Origin: a virus
DNA: 45,932 nucleotides
Strand: one strand, 5' to 3'
IMG/VR virus record: IMGVR_UViG_3300037511_000088
Coordinates: 1-45,932 of that record
Shown here: positions 2,814 through 21,351 of the stretch, one piece after another
Numbering within the stretch: the first letter of the stretch is position 1
Layout: the number at the start of each line of letters is the position of its first letter
Notes under the pieces: generated by a model
Seen by the model: only the letters and a program-made list of their open reading frames with translations
What the model was told of the DNA's origin: nothing
Databases searched by the model: none
Position numbers and translations under genes: made by a program

Positions 2814-3353
2814 TTGCGCAATTTTCTGAAAATCGCTGGCGGCTTGGATACGATGCCGATGCTCAATGCATTGGCCGTCAACCCGCAGCTGTGGAACGCG
2901 CATGATCTGCGCACGAAATACCCGCAAAGCCCACACCATCAGGCTGATGATATTCTGTTACTCTTCAACGAGTTGCCGGACAGTCCCGCCGATGTGATCG
3001 ACGACATCCAGACGCATCCGTTCGATGCCTGGTATCAGCTTCCTGTCCGCGACATGGTCCTGAACCTGATGCGCGCGGTCAACGGGCTTCAGCTTGGTCG
3101 TGTCATGATCACCCGCCTTGCTCCGGGTACTGCGATCGCGCCCCACGTTGACGAGGGCGCGCCCGCCACTTTCTACAGCCGATATCAGATCATGCTCCAG
3201 TGTCTGCCCGGCGTCCTGTTCCGCGCTGGCAATGAGACAGCGCAGATGACGACGGGCGACGTCTACCACTTCAACAACCGCGTCGAGCATGAAGTGATCA
3301 ACAACAGCGCTGACGATCGGATCGCGTTGGTCGTGGATATCCGCACATGTTGA
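2814..3353 (+). CDS. Aspartyl/asparaginyl beta-hydroxylase-family 2OG/Fe(II) cupin (179 aa).
   Basis: LAPGTAIAPHVDEG and NNRVEHEVINNSADDRIALVVDI fit the H-x-D...H layout of Asp/Asn hydroxylase-type cupins. TTG start; alternative ATG at 2853. Confidence 0.7.
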   Translation: MRNFLKIAGGLDTMPMLNALAVNPQLWNAHDLRTKYPQSPHHQADDILLLFNELPDSPADVIDDIQTHPFDAWYQLPVRDMVLNLMRAVNGLQLGRVMITRLAPGTAIAPHVDEGAPATFYSRYQIMLQCLPGVLFRAGNETAQMTTGDVYHFNNRVEHEVINNSADDRIALVVDIRTC

Positions 3354-3805
3354 CCGCACACGTCGAAAGCCTCACCGACCGGCTGGAGGAGTTGAAGCCC
3401 TTCTTCCCGATGCACTGGGAAGAGCTGGCGCTGAATCAGAAGCAGGTTCCGCTGGATCCTCAGTATGAGACCTATCTCCAGCGCGATGCGCTCGGAGAGA
3501 TCATGGCGATCGTCCTGCGCAAGAACGGGGATATCGTCGGGTATTTCGTCGGGTTCGTCGCGCCTGGGCTGCACTACCGGACATGCCTGACCCTGACGAT
3601 GGATATCTTCTACGTCCTTCCCGAGCACCGGGGGGATGGTGGCGGCTTCGTCCTGTTCAAGGCGGTCGAAGCAGAGGCGAAACGTCGAGGCGTGCAGCGC
3701 ATGTTCGTCGGATCCAAGATGCATAAGGACGCGTCATGGCTGTTCGAAAAGCTCGGATATGAGCCTGTTGAGGTCTACTACTCGCTCTGGATGGGAGAAG
3801 CCTGA
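3347..3805 (+). CDS. GNAT-family N-acetyltransferase (152 aa).
   Basis: LPEHRGDGGGFVLFKAVEAEAKRRG (acetyl-CoA R/Q-x-x-G-x-G/A motif) and a KLGYEPV tail. Overlaps the upstream gene by 7 nt and the downstream gene by 1 nt. Confidence 0.75.
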   Translation: MLTAHVESLTDRLEELKPFFPMHWEELALNQKQVPLDPQYETYLQRDALGEIMAIVLRKNGDIVGYFVGFVAPGLHYRTCLTLTMDIFYVLPEHRGDGGGFVLFKAVEAEAKRRGVQRMFVGSKMHKDASWLFEKLGYEPVEVYYSLWMGEA

Positions 3806-13527: not shown

Positions 13528-13712
13528 TATGAGACAGCCTTTCGCATGGCGAACGCGGTGCCAGCATAGAAGAGCGCCAGCCCGAATATCGCACCTCGAT
13601 AGAGCGCGTCCCAGACGTTGGGATCAATCTGCCAATTGATAAATGCGGCCCCGACATAGAGAATGAACCACGCGCCGATGAGGTCTTTGATGAAGTTTCG
13701 AAGATCATCCAT
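13527..13712 (-). CDS. Two-TM small membrane protein (61 aa).
   Basis: ATG 13712 shares one base with the upstream TGA. Two hydrophobic spans. Confidence 0.5.
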   Translation of the reverse strand: MDDLRNFIKDLIGAWFILYVGAAFINWQIDPNVWDALYRGAIFGLALFYAGTAFAMRKAVS

Positions 13713-14227
13713 CACGACGGCTCCTTTCTGATTGCGGCTGCGAGGGGAGGGGCGGGGAGAGGCTGCCAGTGGGTGGGCTCGCCGATAATCTGCTTTGACC
13801 ACTCGCCTTGGTGCTGTCGCATGGGGGCATTGCATGGCCAGTCCCACTGCCCGATCTGCGCGCAATCCAAATGCTCGCCTTCACAGATCGTCTCGACATA
13901 TTGGATGTCGCTTTCCGTAATCCGGGTGCTTGTCCACAGCAGGATCCGCGTCCCATCCTTCGGCGCCGTCTCGATCGGCTGCCACTGCTCATCGACAGCA
14001 TCCCCGGTGGGGAGAGTGAGGGCATTGATCAGCGCTACAATATCGTGAGCATCTTGATCGGTCAGGTTCTGCGCGATGATCGCAGCGCATGACGGGTCTT
14101 CATCGCGCACGATCATCGCGGAGCAATTTTCATCGCCACACAGCACTTCGTTGAAAGCTTCGACCCGCAGCGGGGGCTTTAGCCGCACAAGCGCCTCCCG
14201 CGCTCTGGCGATCCTATCCTCGGTCAT
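13712..14227 (-). CDS. DUF551 domain protein (171 aa).
   Basis: WQPIETAPKDGTRILLW...THWQPLPAPP signature. ATGA coupling at 14224-14227. Confidence 0.6.
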   Translation of the reverse strand: MTEDRIARAREALVRLKPPLRVEAFNEVLCGDENCSAMIVRDEDPSCAAIIAQNLTDQDAHDIVALINALTLPTGDAVDEQWQPIETAPKDGTRILLWTSTRITESDIQYVETICEGEHLDCAQIGQWDWPCNAPMRQHQGEWSKQIIGEPTHWQPLPAPPLAAAIRKEPS

Positions 14228-14523
14228 GTGCGTTCCTTTAGGGCTTCGTCGATGTATGCATTGATCACGTCGCGAACGCCGGGACCGGGACCAAGGCGGG
14301 CAATGCCAGCGGCTTTCTTGGCGTCGTCGATCTTTGCCCATATCGCGGCGATCATCTCAGGAGTCGGGTCTCGGAGGGCTTCGAGAACGGCGCGGGCGTC
14401 ATGAATATGTTCATCAGCGCTCCCGCTGCACTGGCCGCGAAGCGCGCACGTCGTGGCACATTCTGGATCACGGCCGCCCTTCGAAAGACACAGCGCCCTC
14501 GCGCACCTATCCAGCATGGTCAT
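14224..14523 (-). CDS. Hypothetical protein (99 aa).
   Basis: ATGA coupling on both sides. High GC3. Confidence 0.55.
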   Translation of the reverse strand: MTMLDRCARALCLSKGGRDPECATTCALRGQCSGSADEHIHDARAVLEALRDPTPEMIAAIWAKIDDAKKAAGIARLGPGPGVRDVINAYIDEALKERT

Positions 14524-14810
14524 CGCTCGGTTCCCTTCTCCATCTGCTTGATCAGGCGATGACGACGAACATGCTCAGGGCGATAGATCTTCCCGTCCTG
14601 ACCGTGCCAGGATAGATGACCTTGCTCGTGCCAACCCATCGGCCAATCGATCGGCGAGGACTTGCCTGCCAGGAAATCAGCGATGTGCACCGGGTGCGCG
14701 GCGAGGAAGCTGACGATGCTGCCAGCCGTCTCCATGCCGCCAACACCAGCCGCGGCGGCCCATGCATCAGCGACCGCCTCTATGTGCTTGATGACCTGTT
14801 CCGGGGTCAT
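14520..14810 (-). CDS. Hypothetical protein (96 aa).
   Basis: ATGA coupling on both sides. Confidence 0.55.
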   Translation of the reverse strand: MTPEQVIKHIEAVADAWAAAAGVGGMETAGSIVSFLAAHPVHIADFLAGKSSPIDWPMGWHEQGHLSWHGQDGKIYRPEHVRRHRLIKQMEKGTER

Positions 14811-15610
14811 CGCTCGGTTCCTTGGAGGGTGGCGATTCCTTCCTCAGCGATCTGGAAGCACTCGACCCAGCCGTTGTTCAGGTGACAGACGTCGTCATGG
14901 CTGTAGTTGCTCGGGTTGATTTCCCGGCCGTCCTGATCAAGGATCTGCTGGAATAGCTGCCGGCACTTCTCCAGCGCCTCGACCATCCCGCGCGTGCTGT
15001 CGAGTGCGGCGAGATACCCTTGTTCGAACCCCCAGACGCAATGGTCTCGGGGCTTGACCAACTCTCCGGTCCCGTCGCTGTTGGCAGGTATGCGCCACGC
15101 TTCCGCAGCTTCCCGAGCCCGCTCTGTCCGATCCGGGGCGAGGCGGGTGGTGAGGGCCTGACGAAGAGCCATCGCATCCCACCATGCGTTGTGCTGAACG
15201 GCGCCGGCCAAATCGGTCGGATAACAGTCGACGTTGTGGACTTCGAACGACATCGCCGGGTAGTCTGCCGAAGCCCAGCCACCGTCGCTTCCAGTGGACA
15301 GCGCACGGCAGAAACGACCGATATCCACGGGGCTATCAGCAATAATCGTGGGCCGCTCCGTTTCGCCAATGAAGGCCCGGATGAGGTCGCCCACCTCGTT
15401 CAGGTAGACCTTGGCGGCTTTCGGTGCGCGGTGGCAATCCATGAGCGGTATGACATTGCGGATGACCCACAAATCCATGGCCGCCACATCGACCTGGATA
15501 TGGATGCTGTCGCCATCTTCGCGGACCATCGCTATGCTCAGCAGCGGTCCGTCGTGTCCATCGAACTCGCAGTCAATATAGAAGCGCGTCGTGGAGATAT
15601 CAGACATCAT
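14807..15610 (-). CDS. DEDDh-type 3'-5' exonuclease domain protein with a C-terminal extension (267 aa).
   Basis: FYIDCEFDGHDGPLLSIAMV (Exo I), IIADSPVDIG, and HNAWWDAMAL (H-x4-D). Confidence 0.65.
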   Translation of the reverse strand: MMSDISTTRFYIDCEFDGHDGPLLSIAMVREDGDSIHIQVDVAAMDLWVIRNVIPLMDCHRAPKAAKVYLNEVGDLIRAFIGETERPTIIADSPVDIGRFCRALSTGSDGGWASADYPAMSFEVHNVDCYPTDLAGAVQHNAWWDAMALRQALTTRLAPDRTERAREAAEAWRIPANSDGTGELVKPRDHCVWGFEQGYLAALDSTRGMVEALEKCRQLFQQILDQDGREINPSNYSHDDVCHLNNGWVECFQIAEEGIATLQGTER

Positions 15611-16264: not shown

Positions 16265-16449
16265 TGGGGATCTCCCGTAAGCGCTGCACGGCCCAGATCG
16301 GTGATCACCCAGCGTCGTGGGTTCATCTCGATCTTCACTAAGCCACCGCGGCGCAGTTTTTGGCGGATCCTGTCTTCTGGCCGGTCGGCATGCTTAAGCC
16401 GCCGTCCGTCGTGCACGCGCTCAAGGAAATCTCGTTCAGCTTCCGTCAT
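16261..16449 (-). CDS. Small winged-helix-like protein (62 aa).
   Basis: ATGA coupling at 16446-16449. Sequence IRQKLRRGGLVKIEMNPRRWVITDLGRAAL. Confidence 0.5.
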   Translation of the reverse strand: MTEAERDFLERVHDGRRLKHADRPEDRIRQKLRRGGLVKIEMNPRRWVITDLGRAALTGDPQ

Positions 16450-17087
16450 TCCGTCTCTCCCTGAATGATGGCGCGAACAGCGAGGGTCTGCTCGGCCCAG
16501 AGTGTTCCGCGCTTGATTTTCCGAACGGCCATCTCGCTGACACCAAATTCCCGAGCGAGGCCGCGCATCCGCTCTCCAGCGAGAGCGCGGCGGCATATTT
16601 CGACTGCTTGAAAGGCTTTGAGTTTGGACGTCTTAACGGCCTCACCCGCGATCAGGGTTCCGTGGCGGCGACGATCTTGACTGTTTTCAGATCTGGTCTT
16701 CCACGACAGATTGCATGCACGAACGTCGTTTCTGATCCCATTTTCGTGCGCGGCCTCCATTCCAGGAGGGGGCTCTCCATGGAAAACGCGGCAGACGAGC
16801 CGGTGAACCTCCAACGTACGCGCAGAGCCGCCCTTGTTTAGGCAGACGAACGGGTATCCCTTTCGGCTCAGCTGCTGGGCCAGGATCCCGCCGGGGACAC
16901 GAACCGTCTGCCGATAGCCCTTGGTTTGGCGCTCGAAGACTCTGGGTATCGACTTAACGCGGCCCTCACTACTTACGCGATAATGCCCTTCATAGCCTGG
17001 CACATCTCGCCACTCCTCGCTCAGCCCGGCAGCGATCTTCTCTGCGTCGGTCATGCAGACCTCTCCCGCACTATGCTGAGCGGTCAT
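16446..17087 (-). CDS. HNH homing-type endonuclease with NUMOD4-like, HNH_3-like and C-terminal HTH regions (213 aa).
   Basis: WRDVPGYEGHYRVSSEGRVKS; HRLVCRVFHG...AHENGIRNDVRACNLSWKTRSENSQD; ATGA coupling at 17084-17087. Confidence 0.75.
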   Translation of the reverse strand: MTAQHSAGEVCMTDAEKIAAGLSEEWRDVPGYEGHYRVSSEGRVKSIPRVFERQTKGYRQTVRVPGGILAQQLSRKGYPFVCLNKGGSARTLEVHRLVCRVFHGEPPPGMEAAHENGIRNDVRACNLSWKTRSENSQDRRRHGTLIAGEAVKTSKLKAFQAVEICRRALAGERMRGLAREFGVSEMAVRKIKRGTLWAEQTLAVRAIIQGETE

Positions 17088-17605
17088 GATTGCACCGACC
17101 GAGTTAGGGGCCGCATCCAACGGCGCTTTTTCTGAGCGTTGACGGCCGGCTTGCGGCGGCGCGACGGGCGGTCCCATTCCTCGGCCCGCGTCTCGCCCAT
17201 GTCTATAAATCCAGCAGCTCGCAGGGAGGCGCCGCTTTCGCCGGGCAGCGTGTACGTCCACGCCTCGCGATATCCGAGCGCGCGAGCTGCGCGGCACAGG
17301 CTGCCGTATATCATCGTGCAGGCTGGAGCGGCGTGATTGCCGACTGGAGCCAAGCCCGACACCACAGCGACGCGGCTGATCACGATGCGACCAGTGCCCT
17401 GCCAGACCCGCGCCGGGTTGCCAGCGATACCGACGCCGACCTGTTGGCCGCCACGATTGACCGCGACTGCGAACAGGCCGCCCTGCACGTTCGGCAGGTG
17501 CCGATGCGTATCACGCACCCACTGCTGAGCTGCTTTGACGCTGCACGGCTCAAGCATGAAGCTGCCCGTCGCGCTCTCTACGCGATCTGCGAGTGATAGG
17601 GTCAT
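17084..17605 (-). CDS. XF1762-family-like (GNAT-fold-like) protein (173 aa).
   Basis: WVRDTHRHLP...GVGIAGNPARV...ISRVAV...LGYREAWTYTLPGESGASLRAAGF pattern, as recalled for this prophage family. Not verified by search. Confidence 0.5.
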   Translation of the reverse strand: MTLSLADRVESATGSFMLEPCSVKAAQQWVRDTHRHLPNVQGGLFAVAVNRGGQQVGVGIAGNPARVWQGTGRIVISRVAVVSGLAPVGNHAAPACTMIYGSLCRAARALGYREAWTYTLPGESGASLRAAGFIDMGETRAEEWDRPSRRRKPAVNAQKKRRWMRPLTRSVQS

Positions 17606-17997
17606 GGCTGGACCGTCCGGGTGAGGCGAGCAAAAATGCCTTCCGCGCTACGTTCAGCGTCGATCTGCTGAGCGTCGGGCAATCGCCGCGCAATGGCCGT
17701 TACAAGCCCCTCGCCGGTCACGAGATCGCCCGCCAGTTCCGTGTGGTCGAGGTCCGCGCAGGCATCCTCAAGCCGCGCCTTCAAATTCAAAGCGCAATTG
17801 CCGATCAGGAACCACGCTTTGATGACCCATGTGTGGCCGTGAAGCCGCCCGTCTTCCCCGCGATGCGCTGAGCAGATATGCGTGGATACGCCAGTCAGGA
17901 CCATGCTTGCGCTCCAGCCGGTCAGCATATCGGTTTCGTCCGGTCCATTGAGCAGTTCGCTCGCCAACGACAGGGTCTTCGGCGTCAATCCAGTCAT
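17602..17997 (-). CDS. QueD / 6-pyruvoyl-tetrahydropterin synthase-like protein (131 aa from ATG 17997; alternative starts 17928 and 17904).
   Basis: SAHR...DGRLHGHTWVIKAWF...ADLDHTEL aligns by eye with E. coli QueD AAHRL...CGRLHGHSF...RLDHHYLN. GC3 favours this frame from 17997. Confidence 0.6.
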   Translation of the reverse strand: MTGLTPKTLSLASELLNGPDETDMLTGWSASMVLTGVSTHICSAHRGEDGRLHGHTWVIKAWFLIGNCALNLKARLEDACADLDHTELAGDLVTGEGLVTAIARRLPDAQQIDAERSAEGIFARLTRTVQP

Positions 17998-18620
17998 AGC
18001 GGTGCCCGTTCTGCGCGAGGCTGGTGCTGTCCGCCCCGATGAACGGGTAGTCGAACGCCACCTTGATCCCGCGCAGCATGTGCAGCGGGTGCCAGTGATT
18101 CCCCATGAGTTGGGCAACCTCGTCCATCTTCCGGCGGTATGCATCGCATCCAACCGGCTCCCGCTTCGGATCGCCGATCCAGCCTAGACAGACCCGATCG
18201 TAGCGCTCGCACAGCCTGCCTAGCCGCTCTATCGGGCCGTCCATGTGCCAGACTGGCGCGCCCCTGGATCGCCCATAGGGCCAGTCGTTCAGAAGCCCGT
18301 CGTTGAGCTGGGACGGAGCAGAGGGAATATCGGGGATGATCGCCCACCGCCCCGGCTGCCACAGCATCGGATCGAGCCACCTGTGATAGTCCGACCATTC
18401 CAGCTTCGCCGCGTCCTCTGGAGCAGCACCGGCCCGAAGCGCCGCCATCCAAATTGAGAAGCCGCCCGGATCGAAACATCAGGTACGGGCAAGCAGCCAG
18501 CACCCTCCGTAGCTGATCGGGGCGAAAGAATGAGACGCAGGCAGCGCGGCCCGGCATCACTGCATCAAACGCAGCGTTCGGCGTCATCGGCGTGCCGTGA
18601 TAGATCACAGCCTCACCCAT
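17994..18620 (-). pseudogene. DpdA / tRNA-guanine-transglycosylase-like gene split over reading frames. Either a pseudogene or recoded.
   Basis: The N-terminal 49 codons (ATG 18620, GGAGGTG RBS) run in one frame up to ATG-TTT-CGA at 18479-18471. The protein-like sequence then continues in the +1 frame from 18478 to about 18000, with no stop there. Confidence 0.55.
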
Positions 18621-18993
18621 TTCCCACCTCCGTAAAGGTTGGAGAGGGGGAGGCTTTGGCGATTGCGGCGCGGGCATGCCTGATGACGTCGGGGTAAAGG
18701 GCGTCGTCGGCCAACTTTCGGCGATAGACCGCGTTATCGAATAGCCCGAGGAAGTTTTGAACAGCTTCCAGAAGCTCAGGAGCGGCGGCGATCAGGCGGG
18801 CGTTGGCCTCCGTTTCCCTCGCGACCTTCCGGCCCGCTCCTTCGAAGACAATGGATTCGGCATTCGGTCCCACAATCGACCAATCGTCAGATGGAGACAG
18901 GGCCTGATCCGGACCAGAGGTGTGGCGCACAATCTTCCATGGACCCGGCGTATGCCCATCAACACGGATTCCGGGTATTGTCTGGTTAACCAT
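18613..18993 (-). CDS. Ea22-like early protein (126 aa).
   Basis: GGAGGG RBS before ATG 18993. Carries the HTPGPWKIV...TEANARLIAAAPELLEAV signature. Confidence 0.6.
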   Translation of the reverse strand: MVNQTIPGIRVDGHTPGPWKIVRHTSGPDQALSPSDDWSIVGPNAESIVFEGAGRKVARETEANARLIAAAPELLEAVQNFLGLFDNAVYRRKLADDALYPDVIRHARAAIAKASPSPTFTEVGNG

Positions 18994-19777
18994 TAAGCCC
19001 TCCAACGGTTTGGGTGGGGGACTTGGCGATCAGTGCCCGCCCGATCAGTTCGGGGATCTGCGGAACTACGGCGTTTCCGAGGCTGTGCAGTCGGTCCACC
19101 CAATCGGCAGGCCGGTCATCCATTCCCCGAAGCAGGGGTTGAGGAAAACGATCATCTCCACCAAAGGCAGAATACGCGACGTCGAACAGATCCGCCGAGC
19201 CACCCGGCCACCCTTGTCCAGTCGCGCCAGCACGGACGCTCTCGAACAGTCCTTCCATTCGCTGGCCGGCAGGGTAGGCAGCAATCCACGCCCGTTTGCG
19301 GGCCTGAGGGGCGCCGACCGCGAAGGCTGGCACAGTATCCCATTCCGCATCGTACCGGCGTGCGGCAAGGCACCGGAGTACGACGTCAAGTCCGTCCCCG
19401 GTGAGGCGATCGACGTTTTCGATGACGACCGCTTCCGGTTCGAGTTCGCCGATGAGGCGATCATATTCGAACCATAGCCCGCTCTGATCTCCGTCGAGCC
19501 CGCTGTCTCCACCGTGGACAGATGCGGCGATGCTGACATTCTGGCAGGGGAAGCCGCCCCAGATGGCGTCCACAGCAATTCCATCGGCAGCGAGCCGTTC
19601 AGCGGTAAGGCTGCGCACGTCGTCATAGCAGGGGACCTCGGGCCAGTGCTTGGCCAGCACGCGCCGGCAGAAGGGGTCGATCTCGCAGAACGCCACGGTG
19701 CGGAAGCCGCCCGAACGCTCCATGCCGAGATCGAACGCTCCGATGCCGGAGAAAAGGGAGAGGCCGCGCTTCATCAC
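18986..19777 (-). CDS. DNA (cytosine-5)-methyltransferase (about 262 aa).
   Basis: Motif I LFSGIGAFDLG, motif IV GGFPCQ, VVIENV, and motif X LGNAVVPQI. ATG at 19774 (GTG at 19777). Confidence 0.85.
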   Translation of the reverse strand: MMKRGLSLFSGIGAFDLGMERSGGFRTVAFCEIDPFCRRVLAKHWPEVPCYDDVRSLTAERLAADGIAVDAIWGGFPCQNVSIAASVHGGDSGLDGDQSGLWFEYDRLIGELEPEAVVIENVDRLTGDGLDVVLRCLAARRYDAEWDTVPAFAVGAPQARKRAWIAAYPAGQRMEGLFESVRAGATGQGWPGGSADLFDVAYSAFGGDDRFPQPLLRGMDDRPADWVDRLHSLGNAVVPQIPELIGRALIAKSPTQTVGGLNG

Positions 19778-19917
19778 GCCGCAGCCGCAATGCTGTAGGC
19801 CGCATTCAGCGAATGGCAGACGCGAGGATCGCGGGTCACGCCGTAGACGAAATACTCGCCGTCAAGCAGCCAGATTTCGCAGCGCGCGTCACGGTGGATC
19901 AGTTCGGCATCGGCCAT
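19774..19917 (-). CDS. Small protein (47 aa), the first ORF downstream of attP.
   Basis: GGAGG RBS 6 nt upstream of ATG 19917. Its stop overlaps the MTase start. Confidence 0.5.
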   Translation of the reverse strand: MADAELIHRDARCEIWLLDGEYFVYGVTRDPRVCHSLNAAYSIAAAA

Positions 19918-20108: not shown

Positions 20109-21116
20109 TCATGCCGATTTCTCCCACTTGAGGATGGCGGCGCCGGCCATTTTCTTGTTGTCCCGACGCTTGGCGTAGTGCTCCACGACACGCAGCGACT
20201 GGCCGGAGATCGATGAGGTTTCGCCAGTCGAGCAGCCCGCTTCCAAGAGAGCGTTCACAGCATTCTTGCGCAGACCATGCGGTTCGACCTTGAAGCCGAG
20301 CTTGGCGGCGAAATCCTGAAGGTGCGTGCGAACCGTCTGCGTCTTCGCTGGGCGCCCCTTGCTGTCGAACAGGATCGTCATGGCCGTGCGCGGGGTGCCA
20401 TCCAGAATGGCCTTCAGTCCGGTGTGCAGCGGGATCGACAGCAACTTGCCCGTCTTTTGCTGCGTGACGTTCAGGTGGCCGTCCTCGATATCGCTCCACC
20501 GGATCCGGCAAACGTCACCGATGCGCTGGGCGGTGTAGAGCAACAGTGCGACGGGCAACTGGACCTTGTCGTCCTTCAGCGCCGCATCCAGTAGCTCTTG
20601 CGGCCATGGCTCGTACTCTCGCTTGCCCGCGTACATTTCAATGCCGGCAGTCGGGTTGATCGAGATCATCTCGCGCTTGATCGCGTAGGCGAAGATGTTG
20701 CGCGCGACGAGGAGCATCATGTTCGCGGCCTGTGGCGTGCCTGCGGCATTATCCATCATCAGCTGAATGTCTTTGCGCTTGATGTCGTCGATCACCGCAT
20801 CGGCGCCGATCAGGTCGACCAGCTTCTCGATGTAAAAACTGTATGTGCGCTGGGTGCCGTCCGAGCGATCTGCGAACTTCGGGCTGTTCTCGTACAGGCG
20901 GGCAACGTCTCCAAGGTTCGGAAGGGTGGCGATGCCGTCCCGCTTCGACCTGGCGCCGAGCTGCGCCGCATAGGCATGCCCCCAGCTCATCTTGTCCTTC
21001 TTGTCGGGCAGGCGGACATATTTGCGCTTTCCGCGCACGTCCTTACCCGTGTCGAAGTAGTAATAATCGTTGCCGCGAGCGCGGACATGTTTCACATATT
21101 GGGGCTGCTTAGCCAT
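20109..21116 (-). CDS. int: Tyrosine recombinase (phage integrase; 335 aa from ATG 21116).
   Basis: C-terminal catalytic region HGLRKNAVNALLEAG...VVEHYAKRRD (H-x-x-R...Y). The arm-binding-like N-terminus overlaps xis by 8 nt. Confidence 0.85.
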   Translation of the reverse strand: MAKQPQYVKHVRARGNDYYYFDTGKDVRGKRKYVRLPDKKDKMSWGHAYAAQLGARSKRDGIATLPNLGDVARLYENSPKFADRSDGTQRTYSFYIEKLVDLIGADAVIDDIKRKDIQLMMDNAAGTPQAANMMLLVARNIFAYAIKREMISINPTAGIEMYAGKREYEPWPQELLDAALKDDKVQLPVALLLYTAQRIGDVCRIRWSDIEDGHLNVTQQKTGKLLSIPLHTGLKAILDGTPRTAMTILFDSKGRPAKTQTVRTHLQDFAAKLGFKVEPHGLRKNAVNALLEAGCSTGETSSISGQSLRVVEHYAKRRDNKKMAGAAILKWEKSA

Positions 21117-21351
21117 TGCCGTAGAGCTTCGATTTCGAGCGCCAGTCGGGGATGCTATCACCGGACAGGCGGTCAAGCCACTGATCCAGGGTGATGCGGC
21201 TCCAGCGCTCTTCTGCGCCGACCCTGAGCGGCAACGGCAAGCGGCCGGCGGTGACTTCCCGCTCCAGCTCGTCCGACTTCATGTCGAGATATGCTGCAGC
21301 CGTCGCGCGCTTCATGAGGCGGGGCCAATCGGGAAGCGATACCCTGCTCAT
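21109..21351 (-). CDS. xis: Excisionase / AlpA-type HTH protein (80 aa).
   Basis: LMKRATAAAYLDMKSDELEREVTAGRLPLPLRVG...RWSRITLDQWLD pattern. Lies directly upstream of int. Confidence 0.65.
   Translation of the reverse strand: MSRVSLPDWPRLMKRATAAAYLDMKSDELEREVTAGRLPLPLRVGAEERWSRITLDQWLDRLSGDSIPDWRSKSKLYGNG

Follow-up and report, generated by a model that had tools for sequence, protein, structure and literature searches.

Apparent programmed +1 ribosomal frameshifting in a phage DpdA-like gene encoded beside a small QueD-like T-fold protein

The involvement of DpdA in modifying the DNA of phages was demonstrated with phage CAjan, the DNA of which loses 2'-deoxy-7-cyano-7-deazaguanosine (dPreQ0) when dpdA is deleted (PMC6884629), and modification by DpdA is viewed as a post-replicative event (PMC10516641). 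The DpdA1 enzymes of CAjan and phage 9g are proteins of 306 amino acids (aa) accompanied by FolE, QueD, QueE and QueC genes. Members of a second, singleton DpdA group, found in Salmonella phage 7-11 and in P22-like phages such as BTP1, are encoded by phages without genes for preQ0 synthesis. Here, we describe a gene related to the latter group in the IMG/VR virus record IMGVR_UViG_3300037511_000088 (positions 1 to 45,932; hereafter the window, meaning the whole 45,932-nt stretch that was analysed), a 45.9-kb contig of a P22-like temperate phage. The gene is split between two reading frames in a manner that points to programmed +1 ribosomal frameshifting, and it is followed by an overlapping gene for a small QueD-like protein.

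Like CAjan and 9g DpdA1, the window protein belongs to PHROG family phrog_887 and is predicted to adopt a (beta/alpha)8 barrel, but its core is only approximately 230 aa in length, the FolE, QueD, QueE and QueC genes do not accompany it, and its predicted activity would depend on a +1 frameshift that also provides a C-terminal tail resembling a clamp-binding motif. The singleton DpdA is a direct homologue, the protein of phage 7-11, which typifies that group, sharing 37% identity with it (9e-29). The singleton genes of the isolates listed are in frame and have no small QueD-like partner, unlike the window gene; those of the P22-like phages adjoin EaD-annotated genes (the ea region), whereas the window copy adjoins int.

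A preliminary description, made from the letters of the window alone, had listed a DpdA-like gene. The gene is indeed present, at 18620-17768, but three-frame translation revealed that it is not one open reading frame (ORF): residues 1-49 are encoded in one frame (the 0 frame) and residues 50-283 in the +1 frame, where the sequence DPGGFSIW…ADSTSLAQNGHRYD… follows the 0-frame sequence MGEAVIYHGTP…CPYLMF. The DNA at the junction reads ATG TTT C|GAT, and in-frame relatives have ATG TTC/TAY GAY at this position. With the joined protein as the tblastn query, alignments were continuous across the junction against the in-frame proteins of Rhizobium phage RHph_N3_2, Pseudanabaena phage Pam5, Vibrio phages and Salmonella phage 7-11, and the second segment was supported by the profile of GC content at third codon positions (GC3). 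The closest three relatives among reference genomes, which are metagenome-assembled genomes of Sphingopyxis, Aquabacterium and Novosphingobium (50-67% identity), are split at exactly this codon. A stop codon of the +1 frame lies 9 nt upstream and the shift in the window is therefore restricted to AUG-UUU. The trans-frame peptide predicted across the junction is VLAACPYLMFDPGGFSIWMAALR, and the predicted shifted product would be of about 31 kDa. In the AlphaFold2 (AF2) model of an in-frame homologue, the slip position falls where strand beta-3 ends, directly ahead of an invariant Asp, such that the N-terminal 49 residues belong to the barrel.

Conservation of the junction was followed through a set of 44 loci of this type from metagenome-assembled genomes, viral contigs and metagenomes, with 50-78% amino acid identity to the window. 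The junction ATGTTTCGA is identical in all 44, followed by C or T, and the neighbouring codons vary. The proportion of frameshifted to in-frame genes among the loci collected is biased, as one of the metagenome search patterns (MFD…) matches in-frame genes only. Among the frameshifted genes, four-fold synonymous sites are near saturation, reading frames are intact for about 230 codons, and invariant residues are retained in both segments, on either side of the junction. The combination of a recurring junction, saturated synonymous sites and invariant residues on both sides excludes sequencing error and makes a pseudogene very unlikely. An error of sequencing or assembly might have been suspected since the site lies in a short T run, but it is effectively refuted: the junction was met again in dozens of samples and projects that are unrelated to one another, among them relatives of isolate genomes, and 5189 bases of the locus are 100% identical to a Logan-assembly contig, albeit one possibly from the same sample. 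According to the other alternative, the gene is a pseudogene that arose by a one-base insertion in a decaying island. One extra T relative to the in-frame ATG TTC GAC would account for the disruption, frameshifted and in-frame forms are interleaved in a rough neighbour-joining tree, and one locus (L099) carries a disruptive insertion. These points are outweighed by the conservation described above, by the features that travel with the shift, namely an open 0 frame, an ATGA junction and a tail motif, and by the existence of two more UUU_Y junctions at other codons (all presented below), so that decay is considered highly improbable. Programmed +1 ribosomal frameshifting, on the other hand, is judged from these sequence comparisons to be a very probable explanation of the split gene.

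The insertion in L099 (approximately positions 3060-3400 of JAESGF010000002.1) is of about 330 nt and breaks a DpdA-like gene having the usual slip site between …ARQYP and YPFVSVDST…; it could represent a small mobile element, an intron or decay. The ATGTTTCGA site was also recognized in contigs belonging to a protein cluster of which RefSeq proteins from Sphingobium isolates are members, the named isolate prophages being those of S. yanoikuyae, S. abikonense and S. olei. In the Sphingobium isolates, the +1-frame ORF alone has been annotated, as hypothetical proteins of 193-196 aa (WP_313337183.1, WP_370171337.1 and WP_380909450.1). Annotation pipelines call the frameshifted DpdA-like genes N-truncated hypothetical proteins, and DpdA-type genes are therefore under-counted in prophages.

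Sites of the form UUU_Ynn are documented to be prone to +1 shifting in bacteria, and UCC_UUU_CGU is used for the production of influenza PA-X (PMC5009743). As with the systems of influenza A PA-X, Yersinia YopN-TyeA and ICEMlSym FseA, the DpdA-like site comprises a P-site UUU, a 3' pyrimidine and a CGN codon next, and a stop codon is not needed (PMC5009743). It differs from these systems in that the gene encodes a phage DNA-modification enzyme, the shift occurs early (at codon 49) and no active product would arise without it, the 0 frame persists as an extended spacer that stops on the next gene's start, and the same solution is found at three different codons within one family. Members of the DpdA-like family with an in-frame first site can shift +1 elsewhere. 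A second junction, Y-P-F|(A/T/I)-S (e.g., YPF|ASADST), was found in 11 loci with the sites CCN_UUU_CGC, UUU_CAC, UUU_CAU and UUU_UGC, and a third, A-P-F|V-M-Y-D, in a single locus (L101) with the site CCC_UUU_UGU; UUU followed by a pyrimidine is common to all three. A full-text search of the literature returned no report of such +1 frameshifting in phages, nor anything relevant on a DpdA frameshift, a link between DpdA and the clamp, XF1762, or phage DMCA. The phenomenon appears to be undescribed and widespread among bacteriophages: it is shared by dozens of related phages and is convergent at three positions of one gene family.

tRNA-Phe(GAA) pairs with UUU through wobble and with UUC through Watson-Crick pairing. 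It is proposed that the transglycosylase would be made only after a +1 slip at AUG_UUU_CGA, with the peptidyl-tRNA-Phe re-pairing from UUU to UUC while the A site waits on CGA. A number of observations weigh against this proposal. Over 13 genes of the window, CGA accounts for 10% of Arg codons (7.1 per 1000), which makes it only moderately rare, and TTT for 24% of Phe codons. Neither a conserved stimulatory RNA structure nor a properly spaced Shine-Dalgarno sequence was found when these were looked for at the slip site. The interleaving of frameshifted and in-frame genes in the neighbour-joining tree suggests that either state is viable, and the 0 frame of one locus (L047) meets a stop two codons past the slip. 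The mechanistic steps beyond sequence conservation are all inferred. In-frame TTT_CGA does not occur elsewhere in the 13 window genes. Monophyly of the frameshifted genes was rejected by the same rough tree. Two other routes to the product were also discarded, viz. transcriptional slippage, for which a run of three T residues is far too short, and a split enzyme of two polypeptides, given that the +1 segment has no conserved start codon and no stop follows the N-terminal segment. A GGAGG-like sequence situated about 29 nt before the UUU (window 18501-18510, minus strand) is at least 90% conserved in 35 frameshifted loci and is not conserved in in-frame relatives; this exceeds the distance at which Shine-Dalgarno sequences classically stimulate +1 shifts.

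The 0 frame past the slip is itself unusual. In 43 of the 44 loci, no stop interrupts it for at least 136 codons, typically for 153-167, whereas the same frame in in-frame relatives meets stops within 1-30 codons. When the enzyme-frame codons were shuffled synonymously, a frame this open was obtained with P = 0.005 for the window and in no more than 1.3% of the trials for any locus, falling to approximately 0% where GC content is near 50%. The frame terminates at a TGA in 43/44 loci, and in 42/44 this stop forms an ATGA or GTGA overlap with a start codon, mostly as T-ATGA within conserved H-R-Y-D codons. In at least 19 loci, the ORF opened by that ATG encodes an N-terminally extended QueD-like protein; in the others, it encodes a different small protein. 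In four loci without a QueD-like gene (L005, 6612-6896; L006, 6618-6863; L007, 5253-5672; and L101, approximately 2755-2960), the ATGA opens a gene of another small family (…QH.GH.AH..LD.LVT..LSSLGYSEGM…), for which no PHROG match was obtained.

The openness of the 0 frame far beyond chance in nearly all loci could be taken to indicate true dual coding, in which the unshifted product of 208 aa (49 aa of DpdA followed by 159 out-of-frame residues) serves as a functional second protein. However, the third positions of the enzyme frame are the first positions of the 0 frame, and their excess identity was 0.071 compared to 0.055 in non-frameshifted relatives, i.e., there is no extra constraint; the 0 frame would therefore be selected for openness only and not for sequence. 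The residues encoded are also rich in Arg, Ala and Gly, as expected of out-of-frame text, and the product would be ended almost immediately in L047. Dual coding is accordingly regarded as improbable. The early stop of L047 likewise implies that the open spacer is not obligatory. It may instead be that unshifted ribosomes are brought to the next start codon, for termination-reinitiation or for protection from polarity; the chances that the open frame has such a role in partitioning or coupling ribosomes are considered to be about even.

Ribosomes in the +1 frame would continue 58-78 codons beyond the ATGA. The 3' end of the DpdA-like gene thereby overlaps the QueD-like core by 137 nt in the window (about 140-150 nt in the window and several relatives). 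The shifted tail is poorly conserved save for its end, which reads QLGLW, QLGLL, QLGLF, QLSLAL or QQSLPL in relatives and QLRFEFEGAA in the window. The pattern Q[LFIVM]x[LFIM] is present within the last 12 residues of 37 of the 45 long-tail variants, compared to 5 out of 43 variants with a short tail and 2.1% of 4073 control ORFs. The motif by which bacterial proteins bind the beta sliding clamp is QL[SD]LF or QLxLxL, and the end of the tail looks like a candidate for such a motif. Tethering of the enzyme to the clamp may be given about an equal chance of being correct, and a putative clamp motif would fit with post-replicative modification by DpdA. The link between the frameshift and a tail with the clamp-like motif is strong but not absolute, as locus L070 (238-871) has an in-frame DpdA-like gene (ATG TTC GAC) and yet a long tail with QQLHLF. 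The GGAG that serves as the Shine-Dalgarno sequence of the QueD-like core (17904-17915, minus strand) consists of the codons for Leu-Glu in YADRLE, a conserved motif of the DpdA-like protein.

The assignment of the gene product to the DpdA family, as had been made in the preliminary description, was upheld with the corrected sequence. The joined protein matches phrog_887 at 3.4e-28, continuously over residues 5-206 (1.4e-18 for the +1 ORF alone), and CAjan DpdA matches the same family at 8.2e-96. The AF2 model, made with the in-frame homologue P0116 (72% identical) and not with the window protein, has a pLDDT (predicted local distance difference test) score of 95.3 and comprises the eight beta/alpha units of a (beta/alpha)8 barrel. 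Its matches in BFVD are phage proteins named queuine tRNA-ribosyltransferase (E-values of 1e-6 to 1e-4; template-modelling [TM] scores of 0.54-0.68). In addition, DUF165/VUT genes, encoding YhhQ-type preQ0 transporters, lie directly downstream of in-frame DpdA-like genes in RHph_N3_2, Pam5 and some coliphages (L001, 5678-6205; L002, 5932-6465; hits H122/H123). Membership in a broadly defined DpdA family is thus supported, and the activity is predicted by extension from it.

What base the enzyme would handle is less certain, and the singleton subgroup may have diverged, either to exchange or excise another base or to act in anti-defence, with the T-fold partner binding a pterin or purine for a different purpose. 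In a published survey, the function of the singleton DpdA group was left open; the DNA of phage 7-11, the sole member of this subgroup analysed, contained only 50 2'-deoxy-7-amido-7-deazaguanosine (dADG) residues per million nucleotides, and that of phage Orion none (Hutinet 2019, PMC6884629). The DpdA-like protein did not match the tRNA-guanine transglycosylase (TGT) family of Pfam (PF01702) at E<0.1, a sequence-profile search of the PDB with the DpdA-like alignment retrieved nothing at E<=10, and a Foldseek search of the PDB gave generic triosephosphate isomerase (TIM) barrels only (E>=8e-3) and no TGT. The protein of ~230 aa also has no CxCxxC zinc motif, and the QueD-like protein has no catalytic Cys. 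To be set against such divergence are the PHROG family shared with the validated DpdA of CAjan, the structural matches to phage proteins named DpdA/TGT, the preQ0 transporter genes directly downstream in several relatives, and the membership of the partner in a T-fold family of the queuosine pathway. On balance, a diverged subgroup appears rather unlikely, though to be taken seriously, and that the product is a 7-deazaguanine is, from the sequence relationships, possible at somewhat short of even chances. DpdA3 of phage phiST was not detected with the hidden Markov model (HMM) of the DpdA-like family, and no match to FolE, QueE, QueC or YhhQ was obtained with Pfam among ten mid-size ORFs of the window, the only ones checked.

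The QueD-like identity of the neighbouring product, together with the retention of its zinc ligands and Asp-His pair and the presence of Asp at the position of the catalytic Cys, was proposed in the preliminary description and is corroborated by structure prediction and by alignment. The AF2 model (pLDDT of 95.4) gave as its top PDB matches with Foldseek the structures of E. coli QueD (3qna, 4ntn and 4ntk; TM score of 0.8, E = 6e-7). The His triad H14, H22 and H24 is invariant in 92 sequences, as are G23, H54, R85 and E88, and D53 is nearly so. The column of the catalytic Cys varies (E, D, R, T, S or G) and never holds a conserved Cys, which counts against the proposed reading as far as the chemistry is concerned; the protein is therefore not a 6-carboxy-5,6,7,8-tetrahydropterin (CPH4) synthase. 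Its Glu anchor and zinc site are retained, which suggests by analogy with other T-fold proteins that it may bind a 2-amino-4-oxo-pyrimidine heterocycle and act on its side group.

The QueD-like family proved difficult to detect. The Pfam score for PF01242 was 19.1, below the cut-off of 22.4, there was no PHROG family, and a word-seeded search for homologues returned nothing; an exhaustive search was needed, and it uncovered a family of ~98-aa proteins that align to residues 32-125 of the long ORF. A profile search then gave 458 members, some of them with PF01242. The protein shares with QueD the T-fold (TM score of 0.8), the His triad for zinc, the pair of Asp and His and the Glu anchor, and with DpdL the condition of a Cys-less QueD paralogue encoded beside a DpdA. 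Differences lie in its size of ~98 aa, in its failure of the CxxxHGH signature with retention of HGHTW, and in its occurrence without FolE and QueE (among the window ORFs tested). DpdL, a published Cys-less QueD paralogue, is predicted to be a decarboxylase of 7-carboxy-7-deazaguanine (CDG), has the signature LxxxHRHxF and co-occurs with DpdA3, FolE, QueD and QueE. Identity with DpdL was ruled out, as the QueD-like protein has DGRLHGHTW in place of LxxxHRHxF and its family HMM misses gp040 (DpdL) of phiST even at E<=10.

Of 42 viral loci with the QueD-like gene, 40 have a DpdA-like gene as its immediate neighbour, the QueD-like gene lying upstream of an in-frame or downstream of a frameshifted DpdA-like gene, and the two likely form a functional pair. 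Hence, the singleton DpdA group gains a conserved partner and a candidate clamp-binding tail, which provide handles on what is inserted and when relative to replication. Caulobacter phage DMCA, the only cultured phage in the collection with the QueD-like gene (by tblastn), carries the pair and presents a tractable model.

Considered as a whole, the following explanation is thought to be reasonably probable. The conserved core would be a two-gene module composed of a DpdA-family DNA transglycosylase and the small, zinc-binding, Cys-less QueD-like T-fold protein. Ribosomes that slip at the UUU would finish the (beta/alpha)8 enzyme, read through the beginning of the following gene and append a flexible tail with its clamp-binding-like end. 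Those that do not would cross the stop-free, unconstrained spacer and terminate at the TGA of the ATGA, from where they could restart on the downstream gene. The slip would in this manner split the flux of ribosomes between the enzyme and its overlapping neighbour, and it probably keeps the enzyme scarce. The enzyme itself would swap guanine in newly replicated DNA for a 7-deazaguanine drawn from host precursors, and the T-fold partner may bind or chemically alter the exchanged base. A bolder version of this proposal, to be regarded as tentative, would have obligatory +1 shifting evolve repeatedly at three codons as a partitioning switch, with a clamp-tethered enzyme that overprints the next gene and a T-fold partner that converts a host queuosine intermediate to a 7-deazaguanine derivative uncatalogued in DNA. 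The stop-free spacer ending on the next start codon makes the setting of ratios between overlapping phage genes testable.

The preliminary description had placed the methyltransferase, DpdA-like, QueD-like and XF1762-like products in a single pathway for a hypermodified base. Its identification of the XF1762 protein is borne out by NCBIfam NF045478 (114.6 bits versus a cut-off of 50; 3.2e-33). The suggested association of the four families holds for the DpdA-like/QueD-like pair, as given above, but not for XF1762, which was found in none of the 42 viral loci and adjacent in only two of 80 metagenome loci (L056 and L086), or for the methyltransferase, adjacent in a handful; both the methyltransferase and the HNH gene are no more than occasional neighbours of the pair. 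Homologues of XF1762 are also encoded by many unrelated temperate phages, including phages not among the DpdA-like matches. Moreover, the protein matches phrog_1384 at 2.3e-19, the family to which Mom of phage Mu, responsible for N6-carbamoylmethylation of adenine, belongs at 7.8e-84; the XF1762-family protein is shorter (173 versus 241 aa) and the two were not significantly similar by direct BLASTP. This connection to Mom points to a separate modification of adenine and away from the decoration of an inserted deazaguanine that had been envisaged for XF1762. A single pathway, in favour of which stand the adjacency and translational coupling of the genes in the window and the two loci with XF1762 beside the DpdA-like gene, is hence unlikely. 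Rather, separate DNA-modification functions make up a mosaic island: a C5-methyltransferase, a DpdA-type enzyme with its partner, and a Mom-like protein.

All seven ORFs of the island were located where the preliminary description had them, on the minus strand downstream of the integrase (Table 1). Their translational coupling is apparent at five junctions, which have GTGA, ATGA or 8-nt overlaps, but it does not extend to the HNH gene, which is preceded by a gap of 29 nt. The island is best explained as an integrase-proximal early operon of a P22-like temperate phage; the window also encodes a portal protein, the head-closure protein Hc3, a gp7-like ejection protein, NinB, a primase/helicase, an integrase and an excisionase-like protein. 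The methyltransferase displays FxGxG, PCQ (IV), ENV (VI), QxRxR and GNAV in its translation, such that motifs I, IV, VI, VIII and X are present. For the label 'Ea22-like', earlier attached to the product of the next gene, no evidence was found, its only matches being to families of unknown function. No family match to the 47-aa ORF was obtained in searches of Pfam, PHROGs and NCBIfam. An alternative start of the QueD-like gene at ATG 17997 would give a form of 131 aa. A nucleotide similarity search against known phages returned short methyltransferase matches only, an Rfam scan of the window found no family, and hence no preQ1 riboswitch, and no tRNA genes were found.

Table 1. Coordinates of the split DpdA-like gene, its associated signals and the neighbouring genes in the window
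Feature	Coordinates	Strand	Basis
Tyrosine integrase, directly upstream of the operon; start codon uncertain	20109..21176	-	PF00589 2.9e-15; phrog_1 6e-39
orf47, 47 aa; stop overlaps methyltransferase GTG start (GTGA)	19774..19917	-	Open reading frame
Small C5-cytosine DNA methyltransferase, 263 aa	18986..19777	-	Pfam PF00145 DNA_methylase 1.5e-32; phrog_363 6.4e-64
Protein of unknown function, phrog_1273 / PF27050 Phage_P22_Y8K6	18613..18993	-	PHROGs, Pfam
DpdA-like gene segment 1, codons 1-49 (MGEAVIYHGTP...CPYLMF), 0 frame; GGAGG Shine-Dalgarno upstream	18474..18620	-	Kept in all relatives
Putative +1 frameshift site AUG_UUU_CGA; skipped base C 18473	18471..18479	-	Conserved junction
DpdA-like gene segment 2, codons 50-283, +1 frame; stop 17770-17768	17768..18472	-	tblastn continuity, phrog_887, GC3 profile
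Unshifted 0-frame continuation, 160 stop-free codons; TGA at 17996-17994	17994..18473	-	Synonymous shuffle
ATGA junction: 0-frame stop overlapping ATG in frame with QueD-like ORF, within H-R-Y-D codons	17994..17997	-	
QLRFEF, candidate sliding-clamp-binding motif near C-terminus of shifted product	17783..17800	-	Motif match
Cys-less QueD-like T-fold protein, conserved core of 100 aa; GGAG 7 nt before ATG	17602..17904	-	Exhaustive search, AF2
XF1762-family protein, 173 aa; start overlaps QueD-like stop (ATGA)	17084..17605	-	NF045478, phrog_1384
NUMOD4 + HNH_3 endonuclease, 202 aa	16446..17054	-	Pfam, PHROGs

The choice of the HNH gene as the right-hand end of the island was arbitrary, since genes of the same operon continue beyond it: an RNase H-like/exonuclease-fold protein (phrog_2259) and a DUF551 protein are encoded at 14807-15610 and 13712-14341, respectively, on the minus strand. 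Elsewhere in the same phage (25168-25713, minus strand), there is a gene for a NADAR-domain protein (PF08719, 8e-27), a family linked to the reversal of ADP-ribosylation, and this may be another counter-defence gene.

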